A stretch of 60,575 nucleotides of DNA, filler included, from Asterionella formosa (Eukaryota), in NCBI GenBank assembly GCA_002256025.1. It is 23 parts of 23 records of this genome, joined end to end, with 100 filler letters (N's around TTAATTAATTAA, not from the genome) between each part and the next. Parts side by side here need not be neighbours in the genome. Positions count along the whole stretch, not along the records: positions 37,127 to 53,197 come from NKIB01005124.1; 22 more parts are not named here. One strand, 5' to 3'. A program made the position numbers and the translations under genes. Positions 3,097-53,360 of this stretch are shown piece by piece (positions within the stretch are counted from its first letter, which is position 1; each line of letters begins with the position of its first letter). The notes under the pieces were generated by a model, which saw nothing but the letters and a program-made list of their open reading frames with translations, searched no databases and was not told the DNA's origin.

Positions 3097-3468
3097 CATT
3101 CTGTAGCCACTTAAGATATGATAGAATCATAGAACCATTCTTAGCTAAATATAGTTTTAAATTTCGATCAATTTCATCCTATGTTAGACCAGTGATATCG
3201 ATGAGAATTACGATCATGCTAAGATAGATCTATGACAAAAGTATACACATCATATAACCATGTTTAACTAATTATATGATGCATTCTGTAGCCACTTAAG
3301 CTATGATAGAATCATAGAACCATTCTTAGCTAAATATAGTTCTAAATTTCGATCAATTTCATCCTATGTTAGACCAGTGATATCGATGAGAATTACGATC
3401 ATGCTAAGATAGATCTATGACAAAAGTATACACATCATATGACCATGTTTAACTAATTATATGATGCA
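3097..3468. repeat. Tandem duplication, 2 x 185 bp
   Basis: cattctgtagccacttaag...aactaattatatgatg starts at 3097 and again at 3282, with few mismatches. Confidence 0.92.
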
Positions 3469-6680: not shown

Positions 6681-6859
6681 TTTTTATATATTTGCTGAGC
6701 TTTCTGTAGAGCAAAGTAGATTATTTGTGTTTTTTAGTGTTGGCAAGAATGACCAAAAGGCAAGACAATGTTATTTTTATATATTTGCTGAGCTTTCTGT
6801 AGAACAAAGGTAGATTACTTGTGTTAGTGTTGGCAAGAATGACCAAAAGGCAAGACAAT
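6681..6859. repeat. Tandem duplication, 2 x ~93 bp
   Basis: tttttatatatttgctgagctttctgtaga...ggcaagaatgaccaaaaggcaagacaat occurs twice. Confidence 0.88.
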
Positions 6860-7441
6860 AAATCAGATAATTTATGTGTTAGCTACATACAAACAAGAAA
6901 AGCGCCAGCAACAAAACTTTAAAAACGACCTCCATTCATGATTGAATCTTGAAATTTCTTTCACGATAGGCTTTAATTTAATTTAACAAGAAAGAAGGGG
7001 TGTGAGAAGAAGCAGCTCAGAGTATGCATCACTTACATCAAACTTACCATGAAAAGGACATCATCGTAAATGCGGTTTTCCATGCATGCTTTCGGCATGA
7101 TTTTTACAATTATGAGGTCGTGCAAGAATGAGTATCTTGATAGTAGACTACTGATATATATGACTGTATTCTAATATAATAAAATGTGGGTGTTGACAAT
7201 AAAATATGGGCGTGGACAATTGTGCTCATTTCCTACTACTACAATGTATCAGACTCCTGTAAAATGAATGCACGACAATGCTGGCGCGGTCTGTGCAGTG
7301 TTGTATGAGCAGACTGACACGAGGACCTCTAATTTTACCACCCTTCAACTGCTACCAGCACTCTCTGGATACATAAGGACAAAAAAATCCCAGCAAAACT
7401 TAGTGACTTCGGGCGCTGGAACGCGGGGACCAGGCAGTATC

Positions 7442-7535
7442 GGTTTTGTTCGTCTGTTTGGTACAACAGGACCTGTCTTTTTTCAGCAGCAACCACACCC
7501 AGAACCCTAGTTAGGACTAAATGAAGCTAGAAGGC
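7442..7535 (-). mobile_element. Partial copy of the SINE family at 45853..46104 (central part)
   Basis: ggttttgttcgtctgtttggtacaacaggacctgtcttttttcagcagcaaccacacccagaaccctagttaggactaaatgaa aligns with the reverse complement of ~45915..46005. Confidence 0.7.
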
Positions 7536-8261: not shown

Positions 8262-8402
8262 TTGCTTGTACACTGCTGCATCAGTCATGATAATGACTGT
8301 TACTATGTCAAGTAGTATAGATATAACATTATTTTTGTTCATACATAGCTAGCAGTATTAGCACAGCAATTAGGGGGTATAAAGTACATAGTTGTGTATG
8401 TT

Positions 8403-8825
8403 CATGTATATGCAGTCACCGGGTGCTTCATTTGCATAAGGGTGGTCATTCAGAAAATCTATTTGCATTTGCCCTCAAGTTCTAGTCATTGTCAGCACAT
8501 TCTAGTAGTCACTGTCAGCCAATTCTATTTGTAGTCAGCAAATTCTATTCATAATCAGTAAATTCTAGTCATAGTCAGCAAGTTCTAAATGTAGAATGAT
8601 TCCTATTTGTATTCCAAAGCAAGAAGACAGTTCGCTGAATGTGTTGATCAGGAAGCAAATCCGACTCATGTTCAGAGTTTGATTCTGCAAATCACTCATC
8701 ATGGGTCAATAAGAGTAATGTTTTCCAAAATAACTTAAGGAACATTATTTTCATCGAAAGCTGGCCTATCTCGTCTGACAGGCATGGGATGTATCATTGG
8801 GAGTGAATTGTAAGTGAAAGTTGTG
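8403..8825 (+). repeat. Dispersed ~350-420 bp repeat with internal ~20-bp tandem units; second copy at 46202..46543
   Basis: Shared blocks are gtcattcagaaaatctatttg, catgttcagag..tgattctgcaaat, cttaaggaa.attattt.catcgaaagctggcctatct and ggcatggga...atcattgggagtga. About five ttctagtcat.gtcagca units lie at 8479..8588. Confidence 0.85.
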
Positions 8826-9194
8826 CATAAAATGTGAACTACCGGTACTGGACCTTCCAGCACCACCAGGTACCAGGTACCTGGTAGTAACTCTCCCTCC
8901 CACACATCCCAGCCATGCATCGGTTTCCCCCAGACTTCTTCGTGTTCCGGTATGCTGACCACTAAAAACTAACAATGATATCATGCGGTCTGTGGTACCT
9001 TGTACCAGCTACGTAAAACCTGTACTCCAGATTCCATATACGGTATGTACCGGAAAACGCACTTCGGCGCCATAAGCATCTCGCACCGCACATCTGCAAT
9101 GATAAAACACGACAAACATCTGGCAAGGAGCAAAGAAAATAACAAAGCCTACCGGGTAATACTGTGACCGGTAATCGACAATTCGACACCAAGA

Positions 9195-10346
9195 ATGATA
9201 GTTTCCAACATACTGGTACATCGGATAATACGACCGACATGCGCTATTATCTCGGGTCCAGCCAACCTCTCAATCAGCAGCAAGAGCTGCAGACGCTTGG
9301 CCTCGTTTTCGTCGCGCGCCTCGGGGACAAGTCTTCCCACCAAACCAAGCGCCAACAAGTCGGTGAGCAAGCCAGCCACGACTCTCCGACCTCAACACAT
9401 CACCGTCAAACGCCTGGAGCCCTTTGGCATAACCAATTCTCGGATCCGCCCTCCGCACCCATTGCCACATCAATCGTCTGTTCGACTCAAGGCTGTCCAC
9501 GCAGCTCACGCCATTGACATTATCAATGTGCTGACCAAAGTCTTTCGGGATTTGCCCATTCGACATTCCTTCGGGAAAATGTCAGTCGTGATGGAGTTGC
9601 CGGACGATCAGTACATTTGCGTCTATCGATTTGGAAGTGTCGTCTTTTTCAATGTACCCGTCAAGGAATGTGCTCGTTGGCTGGGGGACATTAAGTTACA
9701 TGCGACCAAGACCATTGCAACTGGCTTTGAGCGAAAGGAACATTTCGAAGTAAGGAAAAGTGACCAACTGCACTCGACAATGCCTGTTGTGACGGGAACC
9801 TATTGTGTGGTACCGGAATTCAACATGAATGCTGTGTCTGTCATTGGGAATATCATGGCACAAACGGTAGCATTGGACACCTATAGTGATACCGTCGATG
9901 CCTTGTTGGCTGAATTCGCATCGATCAATTCGGCAGTCAATGATTTGGGTAACTTTGAAGATTCTAAAAAGTCGCATTTGTTCAAAGTGGTGGCGCACAA
10001 TAATTCGATCTTTATTGATATGATTTCCAAGTTGGGAATCAAAGATCGGAGTGATGCTGCTTGGAATCTGCCCCTCCTACAAACGGTCCATGAGGGTCTA
10101 CGGGAAGAATTTGAAATATTAGAGCGCTTTGAGCACATTGAATTCAAGCTGGATTTGATTCAACAAAACGCTAAATTCTTTATGGAAGTTCTGCACAATC
10201 AAAAGTCCTATGCATTGGAATGGACAATTGCGTTACTTATTAGTTTTGAATGCATACTTATGATTATGGATATGAGTGGATCAGGTGAACCGATTTTTGA
10301 AGCCTTAAAAGTCATGGCTGGATGGCCTCCATCTACGGATGGGTAG
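9195..10346 (+). CDS. RMD1/RMND1-like DUF155 protein, probably mitochondrial
   Basis: 383-aa intronless ORF with VYRFGSVVFFN, IMAQTVALDTY, DAAW, EEFEILERFEHIEFKLDLIQ and QKSYALEWTIALLISFE (DUF155 signature plus C-terminal TM). The N-terminus is R/S-rich and acid-free. Confidence 0.88.
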   Translation: MIVSNILVHRIIRPTCAIISGPANLSISSKSCRRLASFSSRASGTSLPTKPSANKSVSKPATTLRPQHITVKRLEPFGITNSRIRPPHPLPHQSSVRLKAVHAAHAIDIINVLTKVFRDLPIRHSFGKMSVVMELPDDQYICVYRFGSVVFFNVPVKECARWLGDIKLHATKTIATGFERKEHFEVRKSDQLHSTMPVVTGTYCVVPEFNMNAVSVIGNIMAQTVALDTYSDTVDALLAEFASINSAVNDLGNFEDSKKSHLFKVVAHNNSIFIDMISKLGIKDRSDAAWNLPLLQTVHEGLREEFEILERFEHIEFKLDLIQQNAKFFMEVLHNQKSYALEWTIALLISFECILMIMDMSGSGEPIFEALKVMAGWPPSTDG

Positions 10347-21626: not shown

Positions 21627-23209
21627 NNNNNNNNNNNNNNNNNNNNNNNNNNNNNNNNNNNNNNNNNNNNTTAATTAATTAANNNNNNNNNNNNNNNNNN
21701 NNNNNNNNNNNNNNNNNNNNNNNNNNTACATGTTGGCTTACCATACACTTGATTCCAGCTTGTCGAAACAGAACTACAGCAGGAGTGCTCCAAGCATGGC
21801 CCTGTCGAAATTAATTAACTTCTAAAGAAGATGAAGACACATTGATGTGCCATGGGCTTCGATTACAAGTTTGTAATGATTGTAGATTGATAGAGCAATC
21901 ACTGATGTTGTTGTATGATTGTCAACATTACGTAAATTCATGAACCTGTGTATTTATCCATTAAATATTCTCTATGCTAATTATCCATCATGCTAGCTAG
22001 GAGTATGGTAGCTTTTTTACTTATGTACTCTGAGCATGATAACAGCCATACTGAAATTGGGCTCATGACTAATGTTTGAAAGAGTTTTTATAAAAAAGAA
22101 TTGCCGCTGACATACAGGATTGTCTCATCATGATTTGCCGTCACGGCGCACTCCTCAGCGCAGGCTGGAGATTGTGTTGCGATAATGTTGGGGATACAGG
22201 GTGAGGCAGGCAACTGAGCAACCTTACCTCTCACGGTGGATGGATATGAGATCGCGATCCTTTTGCTTTTTTTTGTACTTAGCCTCATTACGCAAGTGAA
22301 TGGATCTCCCAGCATTCAATCGCCATGTCGTACCGCTATCTTAGCGGTGTCTGATTCAGTAGTACCAGGTAACCACACATGTCGGCAGACTTATCGCAAT
22401 TTAGTCCTACATACCAGTACATTTTGAATATCTCATGCACGGTATGTACAAACAAGTATTTTTAGCTTTCGGGACATCAACAATGTACCGGTACCTGGGG
22501 AGTACCTGGTCTAAACATGATGTTCACAAAGAATAAAGTATCCAACAAAAGTGAGCGCGACAAAATCCAATTTCTCAGGCACCAGAAAAGAATGAGATAA
22601 TGCACTGTCGTTCAATATTGGTTGCATCTAGCTTTCTAACTCTAGTGCTTGTAAGTGGATGTCCCGTTGGCACCTTCTTCTCGTGATCGTTTCGACTTTT
22701 GATGTCAGCTCGTCCTTTCTAGTACANNNNNNNNNNNNNNNNNNNNNNNNNNNNNNNNNNNNNNNNNNNNTTAATTAATTAANNNNNNNNNNNNNNNNNN
22801 NNNNNNNNNNNNNNNNNNNNNNNNNNTTGGCATTCTGCAGCCATACGTAGCTCATTGCAAGTGCACATATGTGCAAAGGACTGAATGAGCTTGGTGTGAC
22901 CTTGGGACATTCGGTCAATCATGTACATACCGTGTAGCAAGCTCAGAAATTTCAAACCTGAAAAACCACCAAGGGTAGGTTTAATACTAGTGTAAAGTGG
23001 AGCTGTAGTCACTTTGACAAAAATAGACTTGAATTTACGCACTTTGTTTAAATGATGGTTGTGCATGTGGGCAATTGCTGGCTGGGCATGCATTGCAGTC
23101 TTGAGTAACTGGTGAAAAGCAGATTTCATCACCAAGGCTTCCACTGCTCCACCACCCCAGCAACAACCAAGCAGGTACCCAGTCCTACTGAACATGTGCA
23201 TACCAACCA

Positions 23210-28651: not shown

Positions 28652-28942
28652 ATTACAGATCATACCTCCTGGTTAGAAATGATTGCCAATAAATAAGATC
28701 ACAGATAACAATTTTTAGCTTTTTTATCTTACTTTTCACATGAATATATCTTACTACTAAAAAATTACAGATCATGCTTTGGTTAGATATCATTGCCAAT
28801 AAATAAGATCACAGATAATCATTTGTAGCTTTTTTGATCTTACTTTTAACATGAATATATCTTAATACTTAAAACCCAGATAATACTTTCTGGTTAGATA
28901 TGATTGCCGATAAATAAGATCACAGATAACAACTTTTAGCTT
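28652..28942. repeat. Diverged tandem repeat, ~3 x 111 bp
   Basis: ggttaga.at..ttgcc.ataaataagatcacagataa recurs three times. Confidence 0.85.
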
Positions 28943-35287: not shown

Positions 35288-35417
35288 TTTTTATTTTCCT
35301 ATGCATGCTGTTACAGTTACAATGAGAAGGAATGGTTTGTTAGCTAGTCATGTTTATTTTCCTATGCATGCTGTTACAGTTACAATGAGAAGGAATGGTT
35401 TGTTAGCTAGTCATGTT
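35288..35417. repeat. Tandem duplication 2 x 63 bp inside dispersed repeat 35080..35900
   Basis: tttattttcctatgcatgctgttacagttacaatgagaaggaatggtttgttagctagtcatg occurs twice. Confidence 0.9.
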
Positions 35418-37026: not shown

Positions 37027-40000
37027 NNNNNNNNNNNNNNNNNNNNNNNNNNNNNNNNNNNNNNNNNNNNTTAATTAATTAANNNNNNNNNNNNNNNNNN
37101 NNNNNNNNNNNNNNNNNNNNNNNNNNATGGATGACTATCACCAGGCCACCAGCAAGATTCATCCCATAGGATTAGTGTCACAAGAGTACATCATGAATCA
37201 TAGGGTTGTATGCATATACTTGTACACCATAAAGCACAGAAATCACCACAGGGCAAATTCACAAATACTTCCACTTTTCGTTCTATTCGCTCTATCATTA
37301 CCAGTAATCCTATACTATCCTTCCATCTGCTCTATTATTGCGTTGTTGTGCTTACTAAGCGATGTCATTAAGAACCTGGCAATCTTGTTATTTATACAAC
37401 TACACATGTTCCTTGTACACTGCATCTCCGTGAATACAATAGCTGGGTTGACAGTGATTGCTCTCGATGCTTGCAAACACATCGCCATGTTGAGTTTGTT
37501 CCTGATGTCAATTACAATCGATCATTGCTCTAGCTAATACATATATAAAGTTCATGTAAACTATCATAATAGCATCTATTAGACTAGCAGCTGCAGTTAG
37601 AATAGTGGCTTCCATTCAACCAGGAATAGATCATTGCCATTAATCTGATGAAATGACCATGGTCATTTCAAAAGGGGGTCTCAAAAATCACATGCTAAAT
37701 AAGTCAAAACGTAATTTACTATAGGAAAAGATGAACAAACTAAAAAATGAAAATTATTATCTATGAATCATTTTTTAAGGTTGCAGCCCCCGCATAACCC
37801 TAGTTTATAGCAAAACATCGCTAGGGTTGTAAAATCGGCATGGAACAGGGAGTTAGTTTCTGCGAATTCCCATGATTCGAGTGTCCATTCGAATATTTAT
37901 ATTGAATAGTAATCGGCGCCAGATTAAAGAGTTCCATTTCAAACAAACAAACATGATATTTTCATGATTATGTTATATCTTCATTGGTGTATTTAGATAT
38001 AAAATTACTCCATGCCAAAAATATATGTAAATCAGTAGGATGCCGGTATGTATAGTAATCATGGGTCTTTTTCAAAGAAAGGAAATGATATTAAGATCTT
38101 CATATTCAATCTACGTTGCTGAATGTAAATTTAATAATTCTCTACGCCAAAAGGCATCTACATACCAGTTAATCAGTGCTTAGTACCTGGTACCGATATG
38201 AAATCTTGGTTCATGACAAGCATGGGAAAACTACCGGTATTTAGAGAGAGTGCAAGAATCATCTCCTCATAAAATACCCTGGAGTCTGTTCGGACAGAGA
38301 ATTATGCAGCAAAACATACCTACGCAAGACTCTACTTCCGATTCTACTATTTTGGTGACTGCCTGTTGAAAAAGCCAATCAGGTCGACTTTTTGGAGGAG
38401 GATTGCTCTACATCTGCTGGGTTTTATGAAGATTAAAATAGATAGCAATGTACCATATAGTGTCAGGAGTTAACTTCTGGAGAGAAACTGCTGTTATCTA
38501 TCGTAGATTTTTAAAGCTTGGTAGCCCCTTTTTTGACCATTTTTGCAATACTGTAGTTATGAATCTACAATACATAACTGCAGTTTCTCTCCAGAAATGA
38601 GATCCTTACCATATCTGCATATAGAACATACCTGTCGTTTCATATGCTTTCTACAGTTGTTTCACTTACATTGACCACACTGCCAGATATTTAATGGTAA
38701 TTTCCTCAAAACAAGCATACCATCATTTTCTTCCTTCCCACCATTGCAACTTTTGGGGTTGTGCATTCCACAATTGAACACAAGTTGCCATTATTCTACT
38801 GCTATATCCTACTTGAATGTTGAGAATACTAGAGGGTTCGAAGGAAAATGGGTCCTCATGCATCTGCATTTTGCTCGAGATAGCCTTACTAAGTGAAAAT
38901 CGAAAAAAGCCCAAAAACGTGCGTTTTTTTAATATGCAGTTGCCAATTTTAAATTTAAAAACCGGTAGATATATATTATAGCTACATGGATCTGTAGTTT
39001 ATGCGATTGCGCACATAAGGGCAATTGAGCCGGAGAAAATCGTAGGAATCAAAATTGCGCCAGAGAAATTTCAACAATCGCCGCATTTATTTTCAACCAG
39101 AGGGAGTACAGTTCCAGGTAGCCAGAATGCGGTAGACTGTGCATTATTCGTTGGGAAGCGATGTGCTGATCAGCATTCATTGTTCAGAATGTTAATGATG
39201 TCATACGAAGTTGCCATGCAGTTATCAGTACAATGGACATACAATCTTCAACGTCCCAAGTTCCTGATACTGCATGCCAGTATGTCATAGAGTGCACAGT
39301 CCATATGGGCACTGCCTTGTGCAAAAGGAATTCAACTTTAAGCCTTGGTACCATACTGGTCCCTAAAAGATACTCATCAACCTTTGGTACCAGGTGCGGT
39401 ACCACATTGATCACGATTCGAGTTCAACTACCGGTACCGGTACGGGGACCGTATATCAACTGGCATGTATGTAGCGGGATAGAAGAGCGATAGAAAAGGT
39501 ACCGCACTATGGTGTTCAGTCCCAGCTACATAAAACCATCTGTGGTAGTTTGTTGCATACGTAGAAAAGACTCCTTGAAGCGATGGCAAGAAACAACTAC
39601 CGGTATCAATAACATGATTCCGGTGTATTTATTTATGAAATTCCACGTGAGAAAGGATGGATTCGATCTTGAGAACACAACGAAATTCAACTACCGGTAC
39701 AGCTAGGGGCAAGGCACCCTGGTACCGTGTTGTAAGCCGGTACCGGTAACTAGGTAAATGAATTCGATTACTGGTACCGGGTAGTAAATTATTATTTGTA
39801 AAAAGGACTCTGTGAAAAGATGCCAATGATCAATTGTTCAATGTGATTACTTAAATATGATTCCACTTGAAAGTAGGATGTCGATTTTGAGAACGTAATT
39901 CAATCGAAAAGATGGCATCGAAGAGATGCAAAGGATCTCGCTCTGGTTCAACATTCCACTGTCACATGATTCTGTACCATTGTAAAGATAACGGAAACGA

Positions 40001-40501
40001 TTATATATGTGACAAATTCCTTCATTCAAAGTACAGGAGTCTTTTCGTCGCAAGAGATATATGATTCGATACCTTTTATGATTTATCGTATAACCCAAGT
40101 CGTGAGACATAGATGTGAGACCCGAATATATATTGGACTGTCGCGAGAAAAAAGTCATTTGGTCTTAACATGTCGCCAACATTTATGTAGTAATTCAAGT
40201 GCACATCTGTTCGATTATGATTCTAGAGGCCCGGTATAGAGCTTCTCGAGATAGTCCGAGTTCTGGTATCGTGAATACCAGTACTCCTGAGTCTATGCAG
40301 TAAGGAGAATAACAGGTACAGAAACGGTACCTGGCAACCTGGCACTACCTGGTACCATACCAAAATGTACCTGGAACCCTGGTACCGGTGCGCTGCATCA
40401 TGTTAACAAGTGAATTACATACCGGTAAGTGGAAATCATATTATCCCACAAAATCAAAACCCTGCCCAAATATTTGCGATAACACGTCCAACATCAACGT
40501 C

Positions 40502-41356
40502 ATGGTTTCCCTTCTTGAAAGTACAATGCACGATGCATCCATTCGACGTTGCTCCTCGCCAGAGGTGGATACTTGTCGCTGTGACAAGTCGTCATCTCCT
40601 GATTTTTCGATTCCCAGACGCCGAACTCGATCGATCCGTTTCAACAGAACTACTTATATTCAAGAAACTACTCATGTGAATGACATGACAGACGACGAAG
40701 TCTCGGCTGTCTGGTACTGTGTAAGTGTTTGCAGGAACAACAAACCACGTCGCTTTACGTGAATTTTTGAGCTATGGATAAACTAACTGTAGTCTTTTAC
40801 TTAACAGAACCGTGAAATAGCTGATATGAAGAAGGAATACAGTGAAACGTTGAGAATTATGGCAACATGCAATGGCATCGACAATACAAACGAAAGTCAC
40901 TGTACTCGTGGGCTGGAATACAGAACAAGAGATGGAGCCCGCCGTCGTCAAATGAATAAATTGAACGCTCTTCACTCAGTTTTGGAAGAACAAGAACGTC
41001 AACGCATCCTTGGCGTCGATGACGATGTCGCACTCGCTTACGTGTACATCGAAATGTCATCACATTGCGCCGACGCAGCACTTTCGCTTGGATTAGAAGA
41101 TATGCAAGTGGTTCGTGACATCATTAATGAAGAATCGCTTGAGCAAGAACGACCCAAACCGGTCAAGAAATCATCACGTTTGAAGGAGCAATCCCCCCGT
41201 TCCCCTCCTGGTAGCCGACACTCAAACTCCCCGCTATCCTCAACATCTGTTGATACTTCAAGCGAATCAAGAACGAAGAATGGACTTCGTCGATTTTTTC
41301 AAAAGTCACAAAGTGACAAGCCGATAAACAACGACGTTGTGTCTGTTTCCAGCTAG
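40502..41356 (+). CDS. Diatom-type hypothetical protein; exons 40502..40720, 40808..41356
   Basis: A GTAAGT donor at 40721 and a TTAACAG acceptor ending 40807 join in phase 0. The motifs RSIRF..THVNDMTDDEVSAVWY, CTRGLEYRT and SVLEEQERQR are typical of an expanded diatom family. Confidence 0.8.
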
Positions 41357-42179
41357 CTAACGAGTAGCTCGCACTAATGCCGCAAGCGTTGCTATTCGCC
41401 GTTGAGACAACAACTTAACTCTGAACAAATTGCTTAACTAAGTTGTAGTTCCATATAGTATTTATATCCTCCTCTGACGTTGTTGAAATGGATTATTAAA
41501 CATGAAAAGTGTCGAGGGGTTGTGGAAGGAGACAACCGGTGCCTGGTACCAGTATAGTTATTAGCTGACATTAGCCATCTGTATACCGGGGTATCTCCAT
41601 GCCATAGTATAAAAAATTGAAAGGTCCTACCGGTAGTCCTACATATGGAATCATCATACCGGTACGACAAACAACGGTAGCTACGTGCCAGTGCGTTTGA
41701 TACCTGCGTGGTCGTGGTTTTCGAGGCTCCCGTCTGAAATAAATTTGTTTCTCCGGGGGTACATATAATCTGTCCCGCCGGCGAAATATGATCACAGGCA
41801 GTTCACAACAAGCAAAGACAAAGTTGATGGAACGGATGAAACGGGTCCGACCATGCGAACGGCCGGAGACTACGGCATACCGCACCTCTCCGACTGAGCA
41901 ATAAAACAGTACATACTCCAACTAAAGCGTCGCGCTATTTGTTAGCAATGTGGGTACTGAAAAGTCCGTTCCAAACAATGCGGAGAAGTAGGCCTTGCAA
42001 CGTGTTTTCGTGTAACTTGTCGAGGATGGCAACGTTTCTTTTTCTCATTCTTTGGCTTGGGCCGGAAGCTAGGAAGGTAAGGAAATCTGGCGCAACAATG
42101 CAGCACTGTCTGAGGTACAATATTTTTGTGCTTTCGTTAACCCAATGTGCCTCTTCTGATCAGTAGACTTTGACAAAAC

Positions 42180-44069
42180 ATGGATATGAATACTGCGTCG
42201 ACCACTGCTGCCAAGCTCCGCACGTTCGTTACCAAATCGGAGGATCAGTCGGACGCAGGTGATAATGAAGATCGAGCTTCTTCGGAAAGCAGGGAAAGTA
42301 CGGAAAGTCGCGACGAAGAAGATAGTTCTCGGAACGAGGCGAGTTTGAAGTGGAGCACTGGATCCGAGCGTGATGGCAATGAACAGGGGACTCATGCAGC
42401 ATCTGACATATTCCAACTGCCCACTCCGTCAACTTCCTTTGATCCAGGTCCGGAAAGGAGAAAAGCAAGCAGCAGAAATATCCATTCGACACAAACCAAA
42501 TGCTCGCCCCGCAGTCCTCCGTCTGCTCGAAACAGTGTTCTGCAGGACGAATCGCCCTTGAATCTTTTGAACAATACTTTTGATACTTTCAGCGAATCCT
42601 ACCTTCGGGAAATGCATTCGCAAAGTCCAACCCCTAACCGTGCACATCACGGGCTTCTAACTACTAGAAACTGTGATGTTGAAATTTTCCTCCCTTTCCT
42701 TTCGGCGACAGGCAGTGCCATGGAAGACATTTCTCCCCTGAAGGACAATATTGATCCCCTCCCCTATAATGAAGGATCTCCTCTTGAGTGGATTCTCAAT
42801 CCTTTGCCCATGATGCCGACCCATACTACGCAGAAAATATCAAGTCCCTTTTACGTATTGGGATCTTGCCGCCAAGCCTTTGAAGGATGTACTTTTCAGA
42901 TTCCATCCATGTTTGATTCTCGTCTTTGTGGATCCTTTAAGCAGTGCAAGAGTACTCGCAACAATGAATTTGACCACTATAGCCATACCGATTTGGTTAT
43001 TGCCCAGCGTAGAGTCAAGGCTGCCATTTGCGCATTTGGTGGAAATAGTGTTGCTCGTCCGTTTCCCATGAACGATCGGGATTTTATCTTTCGTCATCGA
43101 AGTGACGATGACCAACAGCAGGCAAGCTATGAAAATAAGCTTCAACGCCGCTATTTTATGAATGGAAATCGAATTTCGTGGGACGTGGAGGAAGATCCTC
43201 CACTGCATGATGCTGCGTGTGTTGAAATGAATCAAGGTCATCGTCGTGGCATTGACAAGGAAATTAATCATCATGGCCTGGAAACTCCAGTTCGTAGACA
43301 CATTATCCCAGAAATGACTCCGCAGCGCAGGAGTCCGATCTTGACTGACATTCCAACTTTGTCTGGAACAGAAATGCCCAAGATGAAATACCGCTGCAAA
43401 CTCTGCGGTCAACCAAAGATGAGTCATGTTTGTCCATACCGGCAATCCGTTCAGCGAAACATTGGAATCCAGGTTTATCCTACGGCGAATCCATTCGCTG
43501 CCAATGAGCCCGGCTACTTGGCCCCTACTTTGACTGATATGAACAATACTGCCATTAACGATTTCAATGCTTGTAACGATTCTGACGATGGTGATGACTC
43601 CGCTGCGCAATATCATTTTGAAGGCGAGGAAATCCAGCATTCCCCACCTTGCGTGGATATCAAGGTACTTGACAGTCGCAAACGTTCGTATGACGAAATG
43701 AACGATCGTGTACCAATTGCTTTGCCACAGGGTCCGTTTGCTGAAGAAGCTCCAGTTCACCCGGAACAGTATCGCACCATTACACCAGTATCGTCTCAGC
43801 CAACTGGTCTCTACCAGTATCAAGCTGTTGCTTTGACGTTTAACGAACGAAAGAAGCTCAGTGACACTCTCTATGTCATGACCCAAAGTATTCAACAGTT
43901 ATCTCAGGATTGTGCGAATATTTTGCGTGATGCTCGTGAACGATGCATGTGGGATTTGGCTGTTGCGGAGCTTCTGACTCAGATTGTCGTTGCTATGCAT
44001 TGTCAAGAAGGTGACAAGTGTTTGGATGGCTTGCAGCAATACCTTCTCCACCTTGGGATTGCTTGCTGA
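42180..44069 (+). CDS. Uncharacterised protein with CxxC-x6-HxC module (paralogue 1, 629 aa)
   Basis: Long intronless ORF. Contains MKYRCKLCGQPKMSHVCPY and a C-terminal WDLAVAELLTQIV..YLLHLGIAC shared with 49437..53042. Confidence 0.85.
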   Translation: MDMNTASTTAAKLRTFVTKSEDQSDAGDNEDRASSESRESTESRDEEDSSRNEASLKWSTGSERDGNEQGTHAASDIFQLPTPSTSFDPGPERRKASSRNIHSTQTKCSPRSPPSARNSVLQDESPLNLLNNTFDTFSESYLREMHSQSPTPNRAHHGLLTTRNCDVEIFLPFLSATGSAMEDISPLKDNIDPLPYNEGSPLEWILNPLPMMPTHTTQKISSPFYVLGSCRQAFEGCTFQIPSMFDSRLCGSFKQCKSTRNNEFDHYSHTDLVIAQRRVKAAICAFGGNSVARPFPMNDRDFIFRHRSDDDQQQASYENKLQRRYFMNGNRISWDVEEDPPLHDAACVEMNQGHRRGIDKEINHHGLETPVRRHIIPEMTPQRRSPILTDIPTLSGTEMPKMKYRCKLCGQPKMSHVCPYRQSVQRNIGIQVYPTANPFAANEPGYLAPTLTDMNNTAINDFNACNDSDDGDDSAAQYHFEGEEIQHSPPCVDIKVLDSRKRSYDEMNDRVPIALPQGPFAEEAPVHPEQYRTITPVSSQPTGLYQYQAVALTFNERKKLSDTLYVMTQSIQQLSQDCANILRDARERCMWDLAVAELLTQIVVAMHCQEGDKCLDGLQQYLLHLGIAC

Positions 44070-44579
44070 GCAATTTGAGGGATCCCAATGGTTGGAACTG
44101 ATGATCAGATTAAGCAAGAAGTAATATTGTATTTTGGTTTGCGATGATGGCCAAGAATCCCTTGATGAAACGAAATGGTCCGACAAATTGTTTCATATTT
44201 GTTTCTAATACATATCCACCGCAACAATACAAGTTCAATGATTGCCGACGTTTCTTTTGAGTTTGGTCTAGATAAGAAGCTAACGATGAATCACTGACCA
44301 CTTGATGACACTTTATTACTACGGCTAGGGTACCGCTCTTTGCATCTTAACGGTCTCTTTCAATATAGAAATACGTAGTGCACCTGAGAAAGCAACCCTT
44401 GAGAGTTTTAGTTACCTGCATACTATAAACTTCATTGTCCTGCCCCCCCCCCCACTGTTCACTGCCATGACTGAATTTGACTGATTTTACCTAAGGAGGG
44501 GTCCAGGACAAGGAAGAGATTTCCCTTATAATAGACCTGCGTAAATTTTATCGGTTCTACAGGATGGCGTGCGTTTTTC

Positions 44580-45833
44580 CAAAAAATATTAAAAAGGTCA
44601 TTATCTCTGTAAAGTGAAAAATGAGAAAGTTCTTCAGCTTGCAAGAAAAATGCGACAATGGATGAAGCATGGGAACTCCCCAGCAACATCAAAACTGTTG
44701 CACATAAGCATGGCATCATAAGCATGGCATCAGTGCCAGCAATATTCAATGCTGGAAAGCTAACTTCCATGCTTTGATAAGAATCACTATACCAATGTAG
44801 AAGGTTTATTGCCAGATGAGGGCCATTTGCTATTAAAGAAACATAAGTTTCTATAGACAAGTTGTCTAGCAATAGTGCAGCTGAATTTGCTGCGATTCGT
44901 CTAATTTACAATCAGCTTTGCGGTGACAATCGCATTTTTTCAATCATGTTGCTTGCTTCCAAGTTGAAGCACTTCTTGGGACATGATGTTAATTTGAGCA
45001 TCATGCAACAGCCTGTAGCTCACTGGTGTACATCACAAAGCATCATGTATCATTGTATCACTCACAAGGCACAAAAGCAACATGTGCGATGTAGCTACTG
45101 AGTTGTGTCACCATGCAGCAGTATCTCCAGTATGTAAACATACAGTGCATTTCTTGAAGGGTCACATATCATAAACAAACATTTATTTCGATTTTTCGGT
45201 CAGTCTCATGCAAACTGATAAAGGTGCACAAACCATCTGTTTACACACCAATGGCAGCAGCAGGCATTGGACAGTGGTATTGTTGGGCATTTCAATGTCT
45301 GAAGAGACGATTGCTCCTCTTGGTTTTTTCGAAGGAGTACCTGACACCAAGATCCAGAGGTAATTCAACAATCAACAATCAACAATCAACAGTTTCTTGC
45401 CTATCCTCAGGAAATGGTTTATTGTTGTCAGGCAAAGGCGTGGGTCGATGAGTCAGCGTTTGGGCTTGGGATTTGGGAAGTTTCGAAGCCATGGACAATC
45501 AGCCATGATTCTCAACCAAGCTACCTGCTAATGGACAAGGTCCAGGTGCATTTGACAGCAACAAGCCTCAATGCAACAATAAAGGACTGTGGAACTTTTA
45601 TGGGTTTCATTTGTGAAGGTACACCTACAAACTTCAAGTTTTTAAGTTGAGGTAAACAAGCCCTTTAAAAGGTTTGATAGGGATGCCCATAAGGACTGGA
45701 TGGTTGCCCATCCTCATGGCACAAGAAAGTCAAATGACAGGATGTTACTCTGTGGTTCTGGACAGATTAGGAGAAGGTCTCTGAATCTACCATTTTAAAC
45801 ACTTGGAATTCAGTCGGTTTCATTGACTGCTGT
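44580..45833 (+). mobile_element. Degenerate pogo/Tigger-like (DDE_1) transposase
   Basis: The broken reading includes CITHKAQ, PLGFFEGVP, YPQEMVYCCQAKAWVDE, KPW, SYLLMDKVQVH and IKDCGT..FI. These match pogo DDE_1 motifs (Q.KAWMD, LLLD..H). Confidence 0.7.
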
Positions 45834-45852
45834 GACCATGTATATAGATATA

Positions 45853-46104
45853 GGGGAATGGCTTAGTCGTTAGCACACATGTTGTGGTGGCAGGTTCGAT
45901 TCCTGCATTCTCCACCTGTCTTTTTCATGTAGTCCCTACTAGGATTCCGGGGGGTGCAGCTGACGAAAAGACAGGTCCTGTTGTACCCTACAAACAAATA
46001 AAACCTGTACTAATTGTGTCCATTTATTCATTTATTTGGGCACGAGTGCGATTATTGGATAGCTTTAACATAGCTACTATAAGATTTGATTGATAATTTT
46101 TTTC
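45853..46104 (+). mobile_element. tRNA-derived SINE (family 2), 252 bp, 19-bp TSD
   Basis: The exact direct repeat gaccatgtatatagatata lies at 45834..45852 and 46105..46123. The head 45853..45914 has an acceptor stem GGGGAAT/ATTCTCC, an A-box TGGCTTAGTCG and a T-arm GCAGG-TTCGATT-CCTGC. The tail is gatttgattgata. Confidence 0.85.
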
Positions 46105-46201
46105 GACCATGTATATAGATATAAAGATACCAAGTATGTTCATACTAGTATTGGCAAGGCTATCAGGGCGGAGGGGGTAGTGGTTCTTGTGTCTGTTCAT
46201 C

Positions 46202-46543
46202 CATGTATATACTTCATAGGCATAAGAGTCATTCAGAAAATCTATTTGTATTCACAAGTTGAAGTAATTGTCAGCAAATCCTAGTCATTGTCAGCAGGTT
46301 CTTAATGTTGAAAGAGATGATCCCTGTTTGTATTCTGAAGCTAGAAGACTGTTTGCTAAACTGGTTCATCAGTCTGCAAATCTTAGTCATGTTCAGAGAC
46401 TGATTCTGCAAATTGTCATCTGTCGATAAGCATAACATTTTTCTAAATTACTTAAGGAATATTATTTCCATCGAAAGCTGGCCTATCTTGTCCAGCAGGC
46501 ATGGGACAAATCATTGGGAGTGAGTTGAAAATGACAAGGTGTG
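46202..46543 (+). repeat. Second copy of dispersed repeat 8403..8825
   Basis: Collinear similarity to 8403..8825, with fewer internal 20-bp units. Confidence 0.85.
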
Positions 46544-47028
46544 GTGCTAGTACCAGACCTTCCGGGTTTACTACAGGTACACGTACCAGCCATTGGACTA
46601 CCGGTATGCATTGTAGATTACCTTAGATTACCGGTGCCTGCAAATATAAACTCGGAGTCGACATCAGGTCGTGGAAAGCTAGCAGGCATCTCGCCGTGCC
46701 TGCGGCCAAGGTCTCTGAGTTTATGGCGCGCGGCCGGTAAGCAATGTGAAGCATCGTCCTCATCCATCTTGTGTTCAGCCATGAGCATCATGAAATATGG
46801 GTCCCAACGCAGTATTGGTACTACCGTACATAGAGAGAAGCATCGCGTCCAGTTGTTGCTTGTTGAGCCATCTCCAAATCGGGGCTTGTGGAACGATAAT
46901 TACTGTATGCACCATTCACCAATTCTTACTTTTTCTTCCGTCGTCAGGAATAGCCAAGAAAGACACTTATGTTAGCACTAGTCCCTCGTTTCACATCTTT
47001 CATTCCAATTTAATGCGGGCAGTGTTGT

Positions 47029-48021
47029 ATGACGCCAATTGACTTGGTCCTGGTGGATGTTGCGGCAGCAATGGGCGATGATAATTCTTGCGGCAGAGAA
47101 AAATTCCACGACCTAATCGGCCAAGTTTTAATGGATTGTTCCACGGCGGAAGCGTTTCTTGTCGGTGGCGATGCATGCAACAACGCGAAGTGGAAGGATT
47201 GCTGTAGATGCCTGTTTGTCCATTGCCCGGAAGGGCCCGTTTTGAGTGAAGAAGAAGTAGCCGAGCGCCTCAAGAAGTCAGTGGCAGCATTCATCAATCC
47301 CAATGACCAGTATCTCCAATTGACATCGCTTTTACTCAAAAGCCAAACATTTCATCTAGCGTTTGCAACAGAAAACGACCGTCCAATCATTCATCTCCCA
47401 AGGACAAAAGCGGGCAAGCCTTACATACCCGGAAGAAAATCGTTTCAGTTTAGCGTCTCTCATCAATTTCCCTTTGCTGGAATTGCACGCTGTCGAACCA
47501 AAGGAAAGGGGAGGGTGGGAATGGACATTGTTGTGTTTGAAACGCTCAATACAAGACTCTACAATAACCCCGAGGATTTTGTGGAGGTGTTTCGATCAAA
47601 CTTTGCCGAATCAGAATGGAATGCCATTCTAACAGCGACGGATACCGTCAAGGAGTTCTACCTTCGATGGGCGATAAAAGAAGCATACACCAAGGCTCGT
47701 GGGCTAGGAATGAGTTTGGCTTTCTCCTCCTTTGAAACAAAGTTGAATGGCGTCGATGGTAGTCTCTGGGAATATGTAGCTACAACTGACAATTGGTGTT
47801 CACTTTCTGGCGAAGTCTTTTCATTCAAGAATTGTCGAAAGGAAATGTGGCACTTCTTCTTTCATAAACTTAAATCCGGTGCTGAGCTGAAGGGTTGCAT
47901 TGCAGTATGCACTGGACCAGTAGCTTTGACGAGGCTTCCAAATCCTGAACCCTTTCCTGAGATTACATGGACAAGTATCCACGATTTATCGGATTGGCAC
48001 TACAAAAGCTTGTTGAACTAG
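47029..48021 (+). CDS. 4'-phosphopantetheinyl transferase (Sfp/AASDHPPT type)
   Basis: LPRTKAGKPYI, FSVSHQ, RVGMDIV and FYLRWAIKEAYTKARGLGM (PPTase motifs G.D and W..KEA..K). Confidence 0.92.
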   Translation: MTPIDLVLVDVAAAMGDDNSCGREKFHDLIGQVLMDCSTAEAFLVGGDACNNAKWKDCCRCLFVHCPEGPVLSEEEVAERLKKSVAAFINPNDQYLQLTSLLLKSQTFHLAFATENDRPIIHLPRTKAGKPYIPGRKSFQFSVSHQFPFAGIARCRTKGKGRVGMDIVVFETLNTRLYNNPEDFVEVFRSNFAESEWNAILTATDTVKEFYLRWAIKEAYTKARGLGMSLAFSSFETKLNGVDGSLWEYVATTDNWCSLSGEVFSFKNCRKEMWHFFFHKLKSGAELKGCIAVCTGPVALTRLPNPEPFPEITWTSIHDLSDWHYKSLLN

Positions 48022-49436
48022 TGCAGCAAAAAGATTGAATAACTATTGTACATTTGTAGTATCTTAACGAAATAATTCAACAGACAGCAACCTATTGTAA
48101 ATGTACTCTGGTTGGAGTTATGTTCGACCAGATCCATCCTTCCATTAAATCCCAAAAGCGAAGTGTTGCACACTGTATGTACTGTTTTTGTTTTGAGCGT
48201 CACTTATGGTTAATCGGAGACATGGAGATCAATTTTGGTTTGAATGCGAGATGTTGTGATGTGTCTGCAGCAAGGAGCAAAAATATTGCTTTTTGTAGAG
48301 GGAGTATCATCTAATAGTGCCGTGTATGTAATATACGACTGAATGCCATTGTCAATTTCAATTGCTTACCGTTGGTGCCATGATTTACTAATTCTGATAC
48401 GATACTAAAAACATCATCGTCTACTATTCTCAACAAAAGTCTTGTTTTATTGATGTGCGTCGTTTCAATTTATGTACCGGTAGTGGTTACCAGGTACCTG
48501 GTACCATGAGCAAGATGACCGGTTTATGGTCTACTCCGTCGAGTGCCAGGGTATGGAGTACTGGTACCAGTTATCGCGCAGGTAATTAGGTCGTCTGTGT
48601 CGTCGCGCAGAACATGGTAAAATTGGGATAATGACAACCGCTCGAAAAGCTTCAAAATTTAATCCATAACTACGTTATTGAAGATATCTTATGTTTCTCT
48701 CAACGCAGGGACGGTTATTTTCTCTAAGTAATGGCAGCAACCTTGCGTTGAACGGCAAAAGATCCGAATGTGTGCCATGAATGTCTGTATATCGCATTCT
48801 ATGTGCCTGTCCGGGCCTGCTCCACAAGAAAAGGTCATGACGAGGTGCAGGACAACACTCCCTTCATTATACAGATCAATAATAGCGTTTGTTCGGGAAT
48901 CGTCAAATCGCATTTTCTTCAGCTCATTTGTAGAGGTGAGTGTTCCATGATGACTCTCTCCAGTGGTAGGACGAGGCAGGAGAGACGAAATTGGCAGTGC
49001 CGGCATGTTGACAACGACTCATGAATTTCAGAATGAGTCGTTTAAATGGGCAATGCATTTTTGCGTAGCATCGGTGTTTAAGGACGATTCAAATCGATGC
49101 ACATTTATTGTGGATGTCGAAAACTGCCAATTGCCTTGTGGCGTTGCGCGGAAGAGTTACATAAGGGACTATGCTACGATAGGAACGCTCAGCGCCGTCC
49201 CGTGTTGCTCGTCATGTGTGATACACTCGACGCCCGACAAGCACAGAGACTGGTCGAGCCAGCAAATGTAGAATGCGCAAAAGCGGAACTAGAAAACAAA
49301 AAAGGCTTCGAAATCATCTCTCCTTCCAGCGAACACTTTGCCGTTGTGTCAATAGCAGCTCGTCTCATTGTCATGTCTGGTACTCACACTGTTCATCTCA
49401 ACATACGCATGGCATTACAGGACATTGAATGTGATC

Positions 49437-52400
49437 ATGACTGACGTCAATGAAGAAAAGCGAATGGATGAAGAAATTAACAAGCTAAAGTCGCTAGAAC
49501 CTGCCGACAAGGAAGAGGAACCACTCAGACCATCTCCAACATTGGCTAATCGGCCTTCATCAGTGGCGTCGACGCATTCAAATACATCGTCGTGTACACC
49601 TCGAACCACCACGAGTCGTCGTGGAAGAACACGGAGCAGATCTCCACCAACAATGACTAGTCACTCTAGAGCGACATCGAACCTGGCTGATCATCCCTAT
49701 CATGCTGAGAATTATGAGAGAAGTGGTCGGAGTTCGCCGAGATCCCCTCGGAATCTATCGTCAGCCGCTGCTGCTGCTGCTGCAGCTGCAAAGGCGATAT
49801 CCACAGGAGGTAGAAATACATCGCCTTGGGCTTACGAGAATGTAGCCGAGGGTGGACAACAACACAGTGAGCAACGTGGGGACATCAGGTATCATCAGGG
49901 CTTTGACAATATGTTCGGGGGATCTACTAGCTGGCCGGGCGAAGACCAAGCTTCCCGGCGCAATGGTCACGGTCGTGAACAGATGAGAGATCGACATGGA
50001 TACTCAAGACATTCACAGTACCCTAAACAAACTCAGTCCGCATCTTTAGCCGAACCCTACAGTAGCCGTAGTGCTCCTCACTACGATCAATATGGAGCAC
50101 CTTACGATCCCGGCTACGATGATCGATATCGGGAATCGCATGATAGAGGATCGTATGATCAAGAACATCCCCGGAGAATCGGCAGGAATTCACCTCAAGA
50201 GTCTCCTCCTGTTTATCCGCCTGGGCCATATGGCGACCGTCATCAACGTCATGGCAGTGGAGATCCTTATTATGGAGGGGCTGGCAGTATGGCCCCGATG
50301 GAACGCGATATAACACAAAGGGAAAAGGTTCATGGCTATAGCGACTCTTTCTCCTCAAAAGGAATTTCTGGACATAGAGAAGCAGGATCTTCTACCACAG
50401 TGAAACGAGGAGGAGGTACTAGTCGAGTCATCGGGACACCTACTCCAATACATGTGCCACGAGCTGCGGATCCGCCAAGAAAGCATTCTTCACGTGTTCA
50501 TCCAGCCGGAACTCCATCGTCTGTCTTCCGCGGACGTCCGGACGAGGGACATGGGCAGCGATCGTCGCAAGTTGATTCCCCTCAAAAAATTCTCCTTTCC
50601 CTTCGGACACCAACAACTTCGTACGATGAGAGGGACGCTCCAATGAAACAGAGAAGCGATGTGGGCAATAAAGGATCTCGTGGTGCCACTCCATTGAGTC
50701 CGGAGGAGCCTCCGCAGATTCATCATGCCCACAACCAGCATCAAATGGATCACAATATTTTCTTCGAGGTGCGTTTATTTCGTTGGGAAATATGCTGAAG
50801 TATTCTTTATTCTAACTCTTCCCTTGATCTGTCATTTATGACACTGCAGAGAACAAGTCCCGGGGACCATACAAGACAACCGAGTGGTACTCTCGAGATG
50901 GCTCCTTCCTTCTCATTGTTCAATCAGTCGTTCGATAGTCTGGGCGATGCAGCACAGTATTTGACTGTTGGTGGTCCGCTGGATGTAGCTTTTCACTCAA
51001 ACTCATTCGGAGCGCCGTTAGCTGGCGGCAGTGGAGATAACACAGACAATCCGCATTTTCTGCCGAACTCACTTGAAAGGGGGCTCTCTGGAATCGGCTT
51101 ATTAGGCAATCCTTCAGGTGGGAATTTAACGTTTGGCATGAGTCCAGTCAACTCGTTCGGAAATGGAGCTCCATCAAGTGGTGGCAACATGATCCTGGGC
51201 GGTCCAGATGCTCAAGTCACAAGTCCAACACAAATGCTAAGCATGTATCCATCTTACTCTGGAGGATACAGCCAATCATCAGGACAGCAAGCTCCTTTCA
51301 GGGCTCGAGGAAGCGGCGAGCAACCAGCCCGAAGTATGAGCAGTGGAAGTGGTGGTGGGATTTACGCCCGTTCGTTCAATGAAGGATCTCCTCATATTAA
51401 CTATCATGGTCATACGGGCCGCGATGCCCCTTGTTCACAGGACGATGGCCCTCCTAGCTTCTACATCTTTCTTGCCAAAAACAAAAGCGCTTTCATTAAG
51501 TGTTCATTCTTGCTCCCTGGTTTGAAGGCTGCTCTTCTTGAATCACCTATTTCTGATGCTAAGAAATCAGGGGACGAAGGCGATAGGTCAAAGAAGACTC
51601 TGTCTAGCAGAAGGAGCAGATTCCCGGATCCATCTCCGCAGGATACAGCCATTGCCCTCCGTCGTGTGGCGTGTGCCATATGCGCATTTGGTGGTAGCAT
51701 CAGTGGAGACCGAGCGATTGCCTCGTCGTCTGATGCAAAATCAAATGAAAGCGGAACTCAATCCATTTTCAGGGGGAAAGATGGCGGCACCACCCCTTCG
51801 CTAGCCACAACTGTGACCCCTTCTTCTTCAACCGGATCTCCGGCTGGAGCGGGCGGACAAAATCGTGAGAAGCTGAAGTACGACGAGGCGTTGCCGGGAC
51901 GATATTACGAAAACGAGAACAGGCTGTCGTGGGAATTCGAAGAGTCTCCTCCTGTTGGCTGTTTTTCTGAGGACGAAGAAGATGCACGCAACCGGAGCAT
52001 GAAGGCAGAGGCGAGTGGACAAATTGAGATCGATGATGACGACGAAGACCATGATGAAGAAGACGATGATGACGGAATGAGCTCACCTCACCTTTTGAAC
52101 AATGGCTCTCTCTCAGAACATGACAAGAAGAACGACGACAGCCCATCAGCTTCTGATCAGCCCAAGATGCGCTATCGATGCAAGCTTTGCGGACAACCAA
52201 AACAGAATCACACTTGTCCCTACCAGCAGTCTCTACAACGTAGCATTGGTGTCATGATCTATCCTGCTGTAAACGCGTTCACGTCTAACGAGCCTGGAGT
52301 GCTTGCCCCAACCCTAACCGATATGAATAATTTTGTATCATCGGGCTGTGATGATATGTCATCTGCCGACTCATCGCCAGCTCGCCCTACCCCTGATCGC

Positions 52401-53042
52401 CAAGGTAACGCGCCAAAAAATTCTACGCCTAGTGGTAGCAGTGGGCCCACAAATGTGACCCCAGAAACGATGCGTTCACCCACAGGAAATTCTCCGGGGT
52501 CGTCATCTTTGTCAACTGGAAGTGGTACATCTCCACAGCGCAACCCATTCCGCACTCCATCATCCAAGAGAAAAAGCCGTAATACTGCAAGCCTCTCGGG
52601 TGGCGGAGCGATGAGCCACCGTGAAGCATCGCCTCCTCGCAGTGGTGGACGTAAACGTCATTTGACACAAGTGACAGCCGGTTTGGACGATAATGCAGAC
52701 ATGCTGTTTGTTGAGGTCATGGACCTCAAGCCCGAGCAATTCCGTATGATCACTCCTTCCAAGAAGACATCTCTTCCAGATGCTTACACGTATCCATCAC
52801 TTCCTCTCCCATACGCTCAACGCAAACGTTTGAGTGACAATCTCTTCTCGCTTTCGAAGGAGATCCCCCAGCTCACTGACGAATGTGCCGTTGTTCTTCG
52901 AAAGGCGCGAGTGAAGGATATGTGGGATCTTGCGGTTGCAGAGCTCATGACGCAGGTGGTCGTAGTGATCCACTGCACTAATGGTGACTGTCGTTTTGAG
53001 GGCTTGCGTCACTACTTGCTTACTCTTGGTATTGCTTGCTAG
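49437..53042 (+). CDS. Uncharacterised protein with CxxC-x6-HxC module (paralogue 2, ~1174 aa); exons 49437..50768, 50850..53042
   Basis: An 81-nt GT..CTGCAG intron (50769..50849, branch-like ttctaac) joins ORFs 49368.. and 50838.. in phase 0. Contains MRYRCKLCGQPKQNHTCPY and ends YLLTLGIAC. Confidence 0.85.
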
Positions 53043-53360
53043 TGGGCGAATTCATTTTATGCAGAATGCCCCAGATAAACCCGGGAAGGGGGAATACAAT
53101 AAGACATAGTAATCGAATGCGCAAAGGGACTATAATACATCTATCGTACCCTCCTCAGAACATTGTAAAACCGGCAGCGTAGATATTCAATTTTTTTNNN
53201 NNNNNNNNNNNNNNNNNNNNNNNNNNNNNNNNNNNNNNNNNTTAATTAATTAANNNNNNNNNNNNNNNNNNNNNNNNNNNNNNNNNNNNNNNNNNNNGTG
53301 CTCCTGTTGCTCTTTTGTAACTGTTGCAAACCATTCACCTTCCCAATCCGTCATAGAACC

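Follow-up and report, generated by a model that had tools for sequence, protein, structure and literature searches.

The locus and its insertion host

We analyzed a window of 60,575 nucleotides, fillers included, from Asterionella formosa (GenBank assembly GCA_002256025.1). It consists of contigs joined by N44-TTAATTAATTAA-N44 spacers, and the insert described here lies on the contig that occupies positions 37127..53197 (NKIB01005124.1). The region 16122-37126 comprises about twenty contigs of ~1 kb between spacers. The assembly is very fragmented, so that estimates of element density taken from this window are unreliable. The contig of the insert also carries a 747-aa frame at 50799-53042, which has 266 relatives at an E-value of up to 0.001. 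Among the 120 matches listed, those that are named all come from diatoms, i.e., Thalassiothrix antarctica (55% identity), Cylindrotheca, Seminavis, Nitzschia, Mayamaea, and Epithemia. Hence, the host is a diatom, in agreement with the first-pass annotation of this DNA. For the gene that neighbors the insert, the protein atlas yielded no useful taxon.

Upstream of the insert we found a decayed pogo-type (DDE_1) transposase at 44621..45824 on the plus strand. It was recovered by tblastn with a 394-aa protein carrying PF03184 (DDE_1), labeled P0135 here, whose residues 1-391 match the window in three frames. When stops were read as X, BLASTP aligned residues 9-391 of P0135 to the window with an E-value of 5e-85, and a 101-aa frame at 45345-45650 is 69% identical to this protein. 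A Pfam search of six read-through frames of 44100-45852 gave no transposase; the relic surfaced in the protein search alone. It carries several stops and frameshifts.

The insert itself spans 252 bp, at 45853..46104 on the plus strand, and lies between two copies of GACCATGTATATAGATATA located at 45834-45852 and 46105-46123. The two copies are identical at 19 of 19 positions, which upholds the earlier description of a 252-bp insert between perfect 19-bp direct repeats. Since the bases outside the copies differ (T vs C before them, G vs A after them), the repeat is exactly 19 bp long. Such a match is hard to obtain by chance: when the window was resampled 50 times with a first-order Markov model, no repeated 19-mer spaced by 30-1000 nt arose, and shuffling the upstream flank 3000 times never gave a match as good as that observed between the left and right flanks. 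The remaining real repeats of this length and spacing within the window are of the minisatellite type, with periods of ~63-185 nt, and lie at 2742-2858, 3097-3283, 6681-6769, 28682-28818, and 35290-35354.

The insert is short and non-coding, as no stop-to-stop frame of at least 90 aa overlaps 45853-46104. It has no terminal inverted repeats, and the sole inverted repeat in 45500-46500 is an internal hairpin described below. The left edge of the duplication, at 45834, places the insertion directly beyond the C-terminal end of the transposase, and the matches of P0135 at 44621-45824 bear out the first-pass proposal that the insert sits at the end of a pogo relic. Set against a relic full of stops and frameshifts, the perfect 19-bp duplication indicates that the insertion probably took place long after this pogo copy had died, and suggests that retroposition was still going on at that time.

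The right flank of the insert, at 46108-46543 (+), is itself repeated at 8309-8825 on another contig, over ~450-520 bp and with 65-77% identity. The repeat contains tandem-like AGTCATTGTCAGCA units, and both copies lie upstream of host genes; the gene at 47014-48021 is a phosphopantetheinyl transferase frame and that at 9168-10346 a DUF155/RMND1 frame. This repeated sequence possibly represents the 3' subterminal region of the pogo element, and it showed no convincing terminal inverted repeats. We do not take the copy at 8309-8825 for an empty site, because its alignment, when extended leftward, did no better against the real flank than against shuffled flanks (11.8% of 500 reached it).

These observations bear on the idea that the tRNA-like segment is the pogo element's own 3' cargo or subterminal sequence and did not insert independently. 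It is true that the segment begins only 10 nt past the last aligned transposase residue and that its right flank is repeated elsewhere in the window. Yet, tblastn with P0135 matched 44621-45824 only, with no transposase by 8309-8825, and this paralogue contains a sequence like the 19-mer only once, without the insert, its alignment to the right flank starting from inside the duplication. In addition, none of the five flanking ORFs scanned at metagenome loci (see next section) matched a transposase family, and these loci share no DNA homology past the element. We thus regard an origin as pogo cargo as extremely improbable.

Anatomy of the insert and its relatives

From 5' to 3', the insert is composed of a 62-nt tRNA-like head (45853..45914), the trinucleotide ACC, a run of five T (45921..45925), a long hairpin that starts from the discriminator base of the head (45914..45976), a body, and a tail ending in ...GATTTGATTGATAATTTTTTTC. 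The head, the hairpin, and the tail had all been proposed from the first reading of the sequence, and all three were recovered where they had been placed. Within the hairpin and the body, a core domain at 45924..46011 (+) also occurs in a fragment that lacks the head, in another part of the window. Further downstream, the 3' domain at 46055..46096 (+), which extends from TGGATAGCTTTAA to ACTATAAGATTTGATTGA, could be aligned between the window copy and three full-length copies from metagenomes (L002, L003, and L005). It also contains ACTATAA after TGGATAGCTTTAA, and is followed by an A/T-rich tail with a T run in these three copies. In the window copy the tail consists of T7 and a terminal C (46097..46104). 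All four full-length copies have such a T run in the tail, of 7 nt in the window, 8 in L003, 5 in L005, and 4 in L002.

The headless fragment lies at 7436..7528 on the minus strand of another contig, and is 79% identical to the core over 91 nt, at 7436-7525 (nhmmer E-value 6e-17, model positions 71-158). The covariance model R1 found no recognizable head in it, nor any second head in the window. The first-pass annotation had reported a diverged partial copy on the minus strand of an unrelated contig; it is indeed there, reduced to the core. For comparison, the family profile matches the insert end to end (model positions 1-238, nhmmer E-value 7e-74). That ~58 kb of this genome gave only one full copy and one core fragment counts against a SINE, which would presumably be present in multiple copies in this genome. 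Within the same ~58 kb, far too short a sequence to exclude a partner, we found no LINE and no match to the 3' end of the insert, the core fragment being the sole significant match.

To find relatives, we searched metagenomes with a 21-mer that covers the T arm together with the 3' strand of the acceptor stem, and obtained seven loci (L001 to L007). Four of them are members of the family. L002, L003, and L005 are full-length relatives that have in common the head, the T-run region, the hairpin region, the core, and the 3' domain, and L006 is a partial relative lacking the first ~27 nt and the 3' domain. Over 224-252 nt, the identity to the window copy is 80.6% for L005, 79.5% for L002, and 76.9% for L003; that of the partial copy L006 is 80.0%, and overall the relatives match the window copy at 75-81%. 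L002 and L006 come from different metagenomes and correspond to one insertion locus, their elements and downstream flanks being 93% identical in two blocks between which L006 misses ~300 bp, i.e., the 3' part of the element and some flank. L006 is thus not independent of L002, and the number of independent loci is four (the window, L002, L003, and L005).

The boundaries of the family are sharp. In an all-against-all BLAST of whole loci, homology starts 0-4 nt from the start of the head and ends in the tail, and the flanks are unrelated. There are two exceptions: the alignment of L003 with L005 extends 13 nt further upstream of the heads, and L002 and L006 share their flank. A single-copy element is what the first-pass annotation had named as an outcome that would speak against its reading. 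The element is not single-copy, since four of the seven metagenome loci bear a related head, core, or 3' domain in unrelated flanks. At least one further copy is flanked by a likely target-site duplication. In L005, AATTTCCTGTCT upstream and AATTTCTGTCT downstream match at 11 of 12 positions with one gap, and the repeat abuts the head (a match as good arose in 81 of 3000 shuffles). A direct repeat of ~24 nt, imperfect, flanks the element of L001 (8 of 3000 shuffles). No clear repeat bounds L003, for which the best match (68 of 3000 shuffles) lies inside the conserved 3' domain, and L002 begins 2 nt before the head, at the edge of its contig. Duplications of unequal lengths (19, ~12, and ~24) fit target-primed reverse transcription and not a transposase that makes duplications of fixed length.

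In the window (45830-45836), L003 (~56-70), and L005 (~505-520), the duplication, or likely duplication, begins with GA or AA, and the trinucleotide TGT precedes its 5' edge. This could reflect a target preference, with the reservation that the boundaries outside the window were picked after the fact. The same edge is perhaps present in L001 (~535-545).

The remaining matches were of different kinds. L001 has, at 561-793, a head that is 88% identical over 75 nt, but the ~170-nt body that follows is unrelated and a T-rich tail is lacking; L001 shares only the head with the family and may represent a second SINE family. L004 and L007 are unrelated, the latter being a bacterial tRNA-Ser gene beside a tRNA-Phe gene. 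The metagenome loci gave no named relatives and no informative Pfam matches. A scan of the metagenomes with a 20-mer from the core gave no match. We also scanned prokaryote genomes with an 18-mer core pattern and obtained six loci that match over ~19-31 nt around the seed only, which we attribute to chance. Scans of viral contigs gave 0, 1, and 0 matches, and the lone match (L014) is an unrelated coding repeat in a giant-virus bin.

The recurrence of the unit also allows an origin at the DNA level to be weighed, in which the insert is a MITE, or filler DNA from the repair of a break, with the 19-bp repeat produced by repair. The position of the insert inside a DNA transposon relic and its lack of a poly(A) 3' end would both be compatible with this. 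The absence of terminal inverted repeats argues against it, as do the 19-bp repeat and the unequal lengths among members, which do not fit cut-and-paste transposases. Moreover, a unit of ~250 bp recurs with constant ends in unrelated flanks, which one-off filler would not do. Such an origin is, in our view, very unlikely. The metagenome relatives show that the window element is a member of a real family, and elements of this kind have hardly been described in diatoms.

A tRNA-like head followed by a T run and a hairpin

Covariance models and cloverleaf pairing identify in the head (45853..45914, +) an acceptor stem, a D arm, a truncated anticodon arm, a T arm, and a discriminator A. The acceptor stem of the window copy, GGGGAAT/ATTCTCC, has 7 bp with a G3·U70 pair, and the T arm (GCAGG-TTCGATT-CCTGC) is intact, the shortened arm being that of the anticodon. 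The best Rfam match of this head is the tRNA-like domain of tmRNA, with 19.2 bits and an E-value of 3e-5 in a 2-kb search, for a gathering score of 47. The heads of L002 and L003 match the Rfam tRNA model with 30.0 and 28.3 bits, respectively (gathering score 29), and cover its positions 1-71; the anticodon stem-loop, reduced from 13 to 5 positions, is the only shortened part. The head of L001 scores 16.4 bits on tmRNA, and those of L005 and L006 have no Rfam match at an E-value of up to 1.

To assess the fold, a cloverleaf was written for five aligned heads, with 7 bp in the acceptor stem, 4 in the D stem, 5 in a mini anticodon stem, and 5 in the T stem. Its cells are paired in 89.5% of the cases, vs 43-54% in controls where the 3' partners were shifted by 1-3 columns. 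Compensatory (two-sided) changes are absent from all 21 pairs. Hence, the fold of the head is real but possibly just inherited from a tRNA, and gives no evidence of selection. G3·U70 and the discriminator A73 are found in all five heads, position 70 being set by the search pattern; we take this combination to be the alanine pattern.

A functional tRNA gene, which the first-pass annotation had singled out as contrary to its reading, was rejected for the head. ARAGORN called no tRNA gene in the whole window, and none in the five heads at its default and 90% thresholds, and the anticodon arm is truncated. At 80%, it made two odd calls, one of undetermined type on the window head and a mis-registered Cys on L001.

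The head carries putative internal promoter elements. The A-box consensus is TRGCNNAGTGG and the B-box consensus is GGTTCGANNCC. In the window copy, an A-box-like motif (TGGCTTAGTCG, 45859..45869, +) matches the former at 10 of 11 positions, and a B box (GGTTCGATTCC, 45893..45903, +) matches the latter at 11 of 11. The A-box positions of the L001 head match at 11 of 11. The B box does not vary among the five aligned heads, though it was part of the search pattern. The boxes of the window head are 23 nt apart, below the range of 25-50 nt that AnnoSINE uses (PMC8825457), which counts against the SINE reading.

Directly past the head, the T5 run (45921..45925, +) starts 7 nt after the discriminator base and resembles a Pol III terminator. 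At the matching place L002, L003, and L006 have runs of T4-T6, and L005 has T3 only. In other words, the run is kept as T4-T6 in four of the five family copies that have a whole or partial head, the window copy included. Such T runs terminate Pol III transcription in many eukaryotes. Termination at this point would give an RNA of ~70 nt and not the 252-nt element, which counts against reading the insert as a SINE. Either the Pol III of this diatom reads through short T runs, or transcripts mostly stop there.

The same T5 run builds the 5' arm of the hairpin (45914..45976, +), whose 11-nt arms at 45914-45924 and 45966-45976 are 100% complementary. In the window copy, the hairpin has a minimum free energy of -25.8 kcal/mol (z -3.7). 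The fold is kept in four of five copies (the window copy, L002, L005, and L006, with z from -3.8 to -1.1) and lost in L003. The RNAalifold consensus retains it, with one-sided changes to G·U that are workable only on a plus-strand RNA.

The window also contains one Pol III gene, an SRP RNA gene at 22047-22264 (+), which matches Rfam Protozoa_SRP with 72.2 bits (gathering score 65). Its S domain aligned well and its 5' part poorly. The gene ends in T4-GC-T8, and a further T5 run lies in the 5' part that aligned poorly, which offers no more than a hint on whether Pol III reads through such runs.

The conservation of the T run, of the acceptor stem, and of the hairpin could be explained in another way, namely by a small functional Pol III gene (for a tRNA-like RNA plus a hairpin) whose product is occasionally retroposed; the copies would then be its processed pseudogenes and not a self-amplifying SINE. 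A T4-T6 run directly past the head is what a real tRNA-type gene would have, the tRNA(Ala)-like acceptor has G3·U70 and A73 in five of five heads (position 70 being fixed by the pattern), and the hairpin is kept in four of five copies. A gene ending at the T run would, however, not account for a conserved body and 3' domain that reach ~180 nt past it. Furthermore, no copy has the conserved synteny of a master gene, since the flank common to L002 and L006 is apparently that of one decaying locus. We consider this explanation unlikely.

A further scenario, to which we give about the same small chance, is that each copy is a Pol III unit with two outputs, hence the joint conservation of head, T run, and hairpin. 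If this were true, most transcription would stop at the T4-T6 run and yield a tRNA(Ala)-like mini-RNA of ~70 nt with G3·U70, A73, and an encoded ACC, and rare read-through to the 3' T run would yield the RNA that retroposes. The family would then be one branch of a diatom-wide modular SINE superfamily, and would scatter numerous genes for small tRNA-like RNAs over the genomes of diatoms.

A probable SINE in a diatom and its place among known systems

We applied working criteria for SINEs based on the accessible text of PMC8825457. The element is short and non-coding, has a tRNA head with A and B boxes, is flanked by duplications of variable length, belongs to a bounded interspersed family, and ends in a tail with a T run. 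Together with the absence of terminal inverted repeats, the head, the duplication, the bounded relatives, and the tail support the interpretation given by the first-pass annotation. Hence, the insert is likely a tRNA-derived SINE, i.e., a non-autonomous retroposon, inserted by target-primed reverse transcription.

In the mechanism that we propose, the RNA would start at the first G of the tRNA-like head, driven by Pol III from the internal A and B boxes, and would end in the 3' T run. The reverse transcriptase and endonuclease of a non-LTR retrotransposon would reverse-transcribe this RNA at a chromosomal break with staggered ends, and repair of a 19-nt stagger would leave the 19-bp target-site duplication. 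The target would have been a site just downstream of the transposase frame in a pogo-type DNA transposon that was already decaying.

The tail being T-rich and not poly(A), it points to a partner that would recognize the conserved 3' domain. SINEs usually have the 3' end in common with their partner LINE. Au and TS are named plant SINEs with such non-poly(A) tails. An RTE-like LINE is a plausible guess for this partner, because of the nature of the tail and because an RTE-like family is reported in T. pseudonana in the accessible text of PMC2806351.

The element has defined ends, a tRNA head, a perfect duplication, and relatives in marine metagenomes. It can thus serve as a seed for the annotation of SINEs in diatoms and as a start for finding its LINE partner. 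The insertion, being young, can be used as a presence/absence marker between strains.

With the putative SINEs of diatoms, the window element has in common the host group and the class label. Thirteen putative SINE copies, covering 1,454 bp, are listed for P. tricornutum (PMC5859163, Table 2), and a SINE class appears in the repeat annotation of C. cryptica (PMC7466962). According to PMC8147415, P. tricornutum, C. cryptica, and S. costatum are the only other species from which SINEs have been reported. In the portions of these three sources that were available, diatom SINEs are "putative" pipeline classes whose roles are not understood. They come without a described head, duplication, or consensus, unlike the window element, a comparison made by description only. 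A full-text search of papers gave no described diatom SINE family. The first-pass suggestion of an undescribed family is consistent with this, as the accessible texts of the papers searched gave no catalogued match and only the putative diatom classes.

The head resembles the tRNA-like domain of tmRNA and tRNA(Ala) by its acceptor (GGGG.../...CUCCACC), its G3·U70 pair, and its discriminator A. It differs from tmRNA in that its 19.2 bits are far below the gathering score of 47 and that it has no mRNA-like domain (19 nt vs 320). Moreover, the window element is an interspersed nuclear sequence bordered by a duplication.

The layout of the family recalls that of superfamilies of modular SINEs that share central domains, i.e., CORE-SINE and the HCD-SINEs of bivalves (PMC4758252 and PMC11481361). 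Here, modules appear to move separately in L001, with the head on a different body, and at 7436-7528, with the core devoid of a head. In contrast to these systems, each recombinant form was seen once in our data, and the likeness is one of modular layout.

By description, the window element departs from the tRNA-derived SINEs of plants (SINE2/tRNA) in its diatom host, its cut-down anticodon arm, its head of 62 nt with 23 nt between the boxes, and the T4-T6 run and long hairpin found directly past the head. It is like them, as they are presented in PMC8825457, in that its head, with A and B boxes, is related to tRNA and its body is not, and in having a T-rich tail, a target-site duplication in the range of 10-20 nt, and no terminal inverted repeats.
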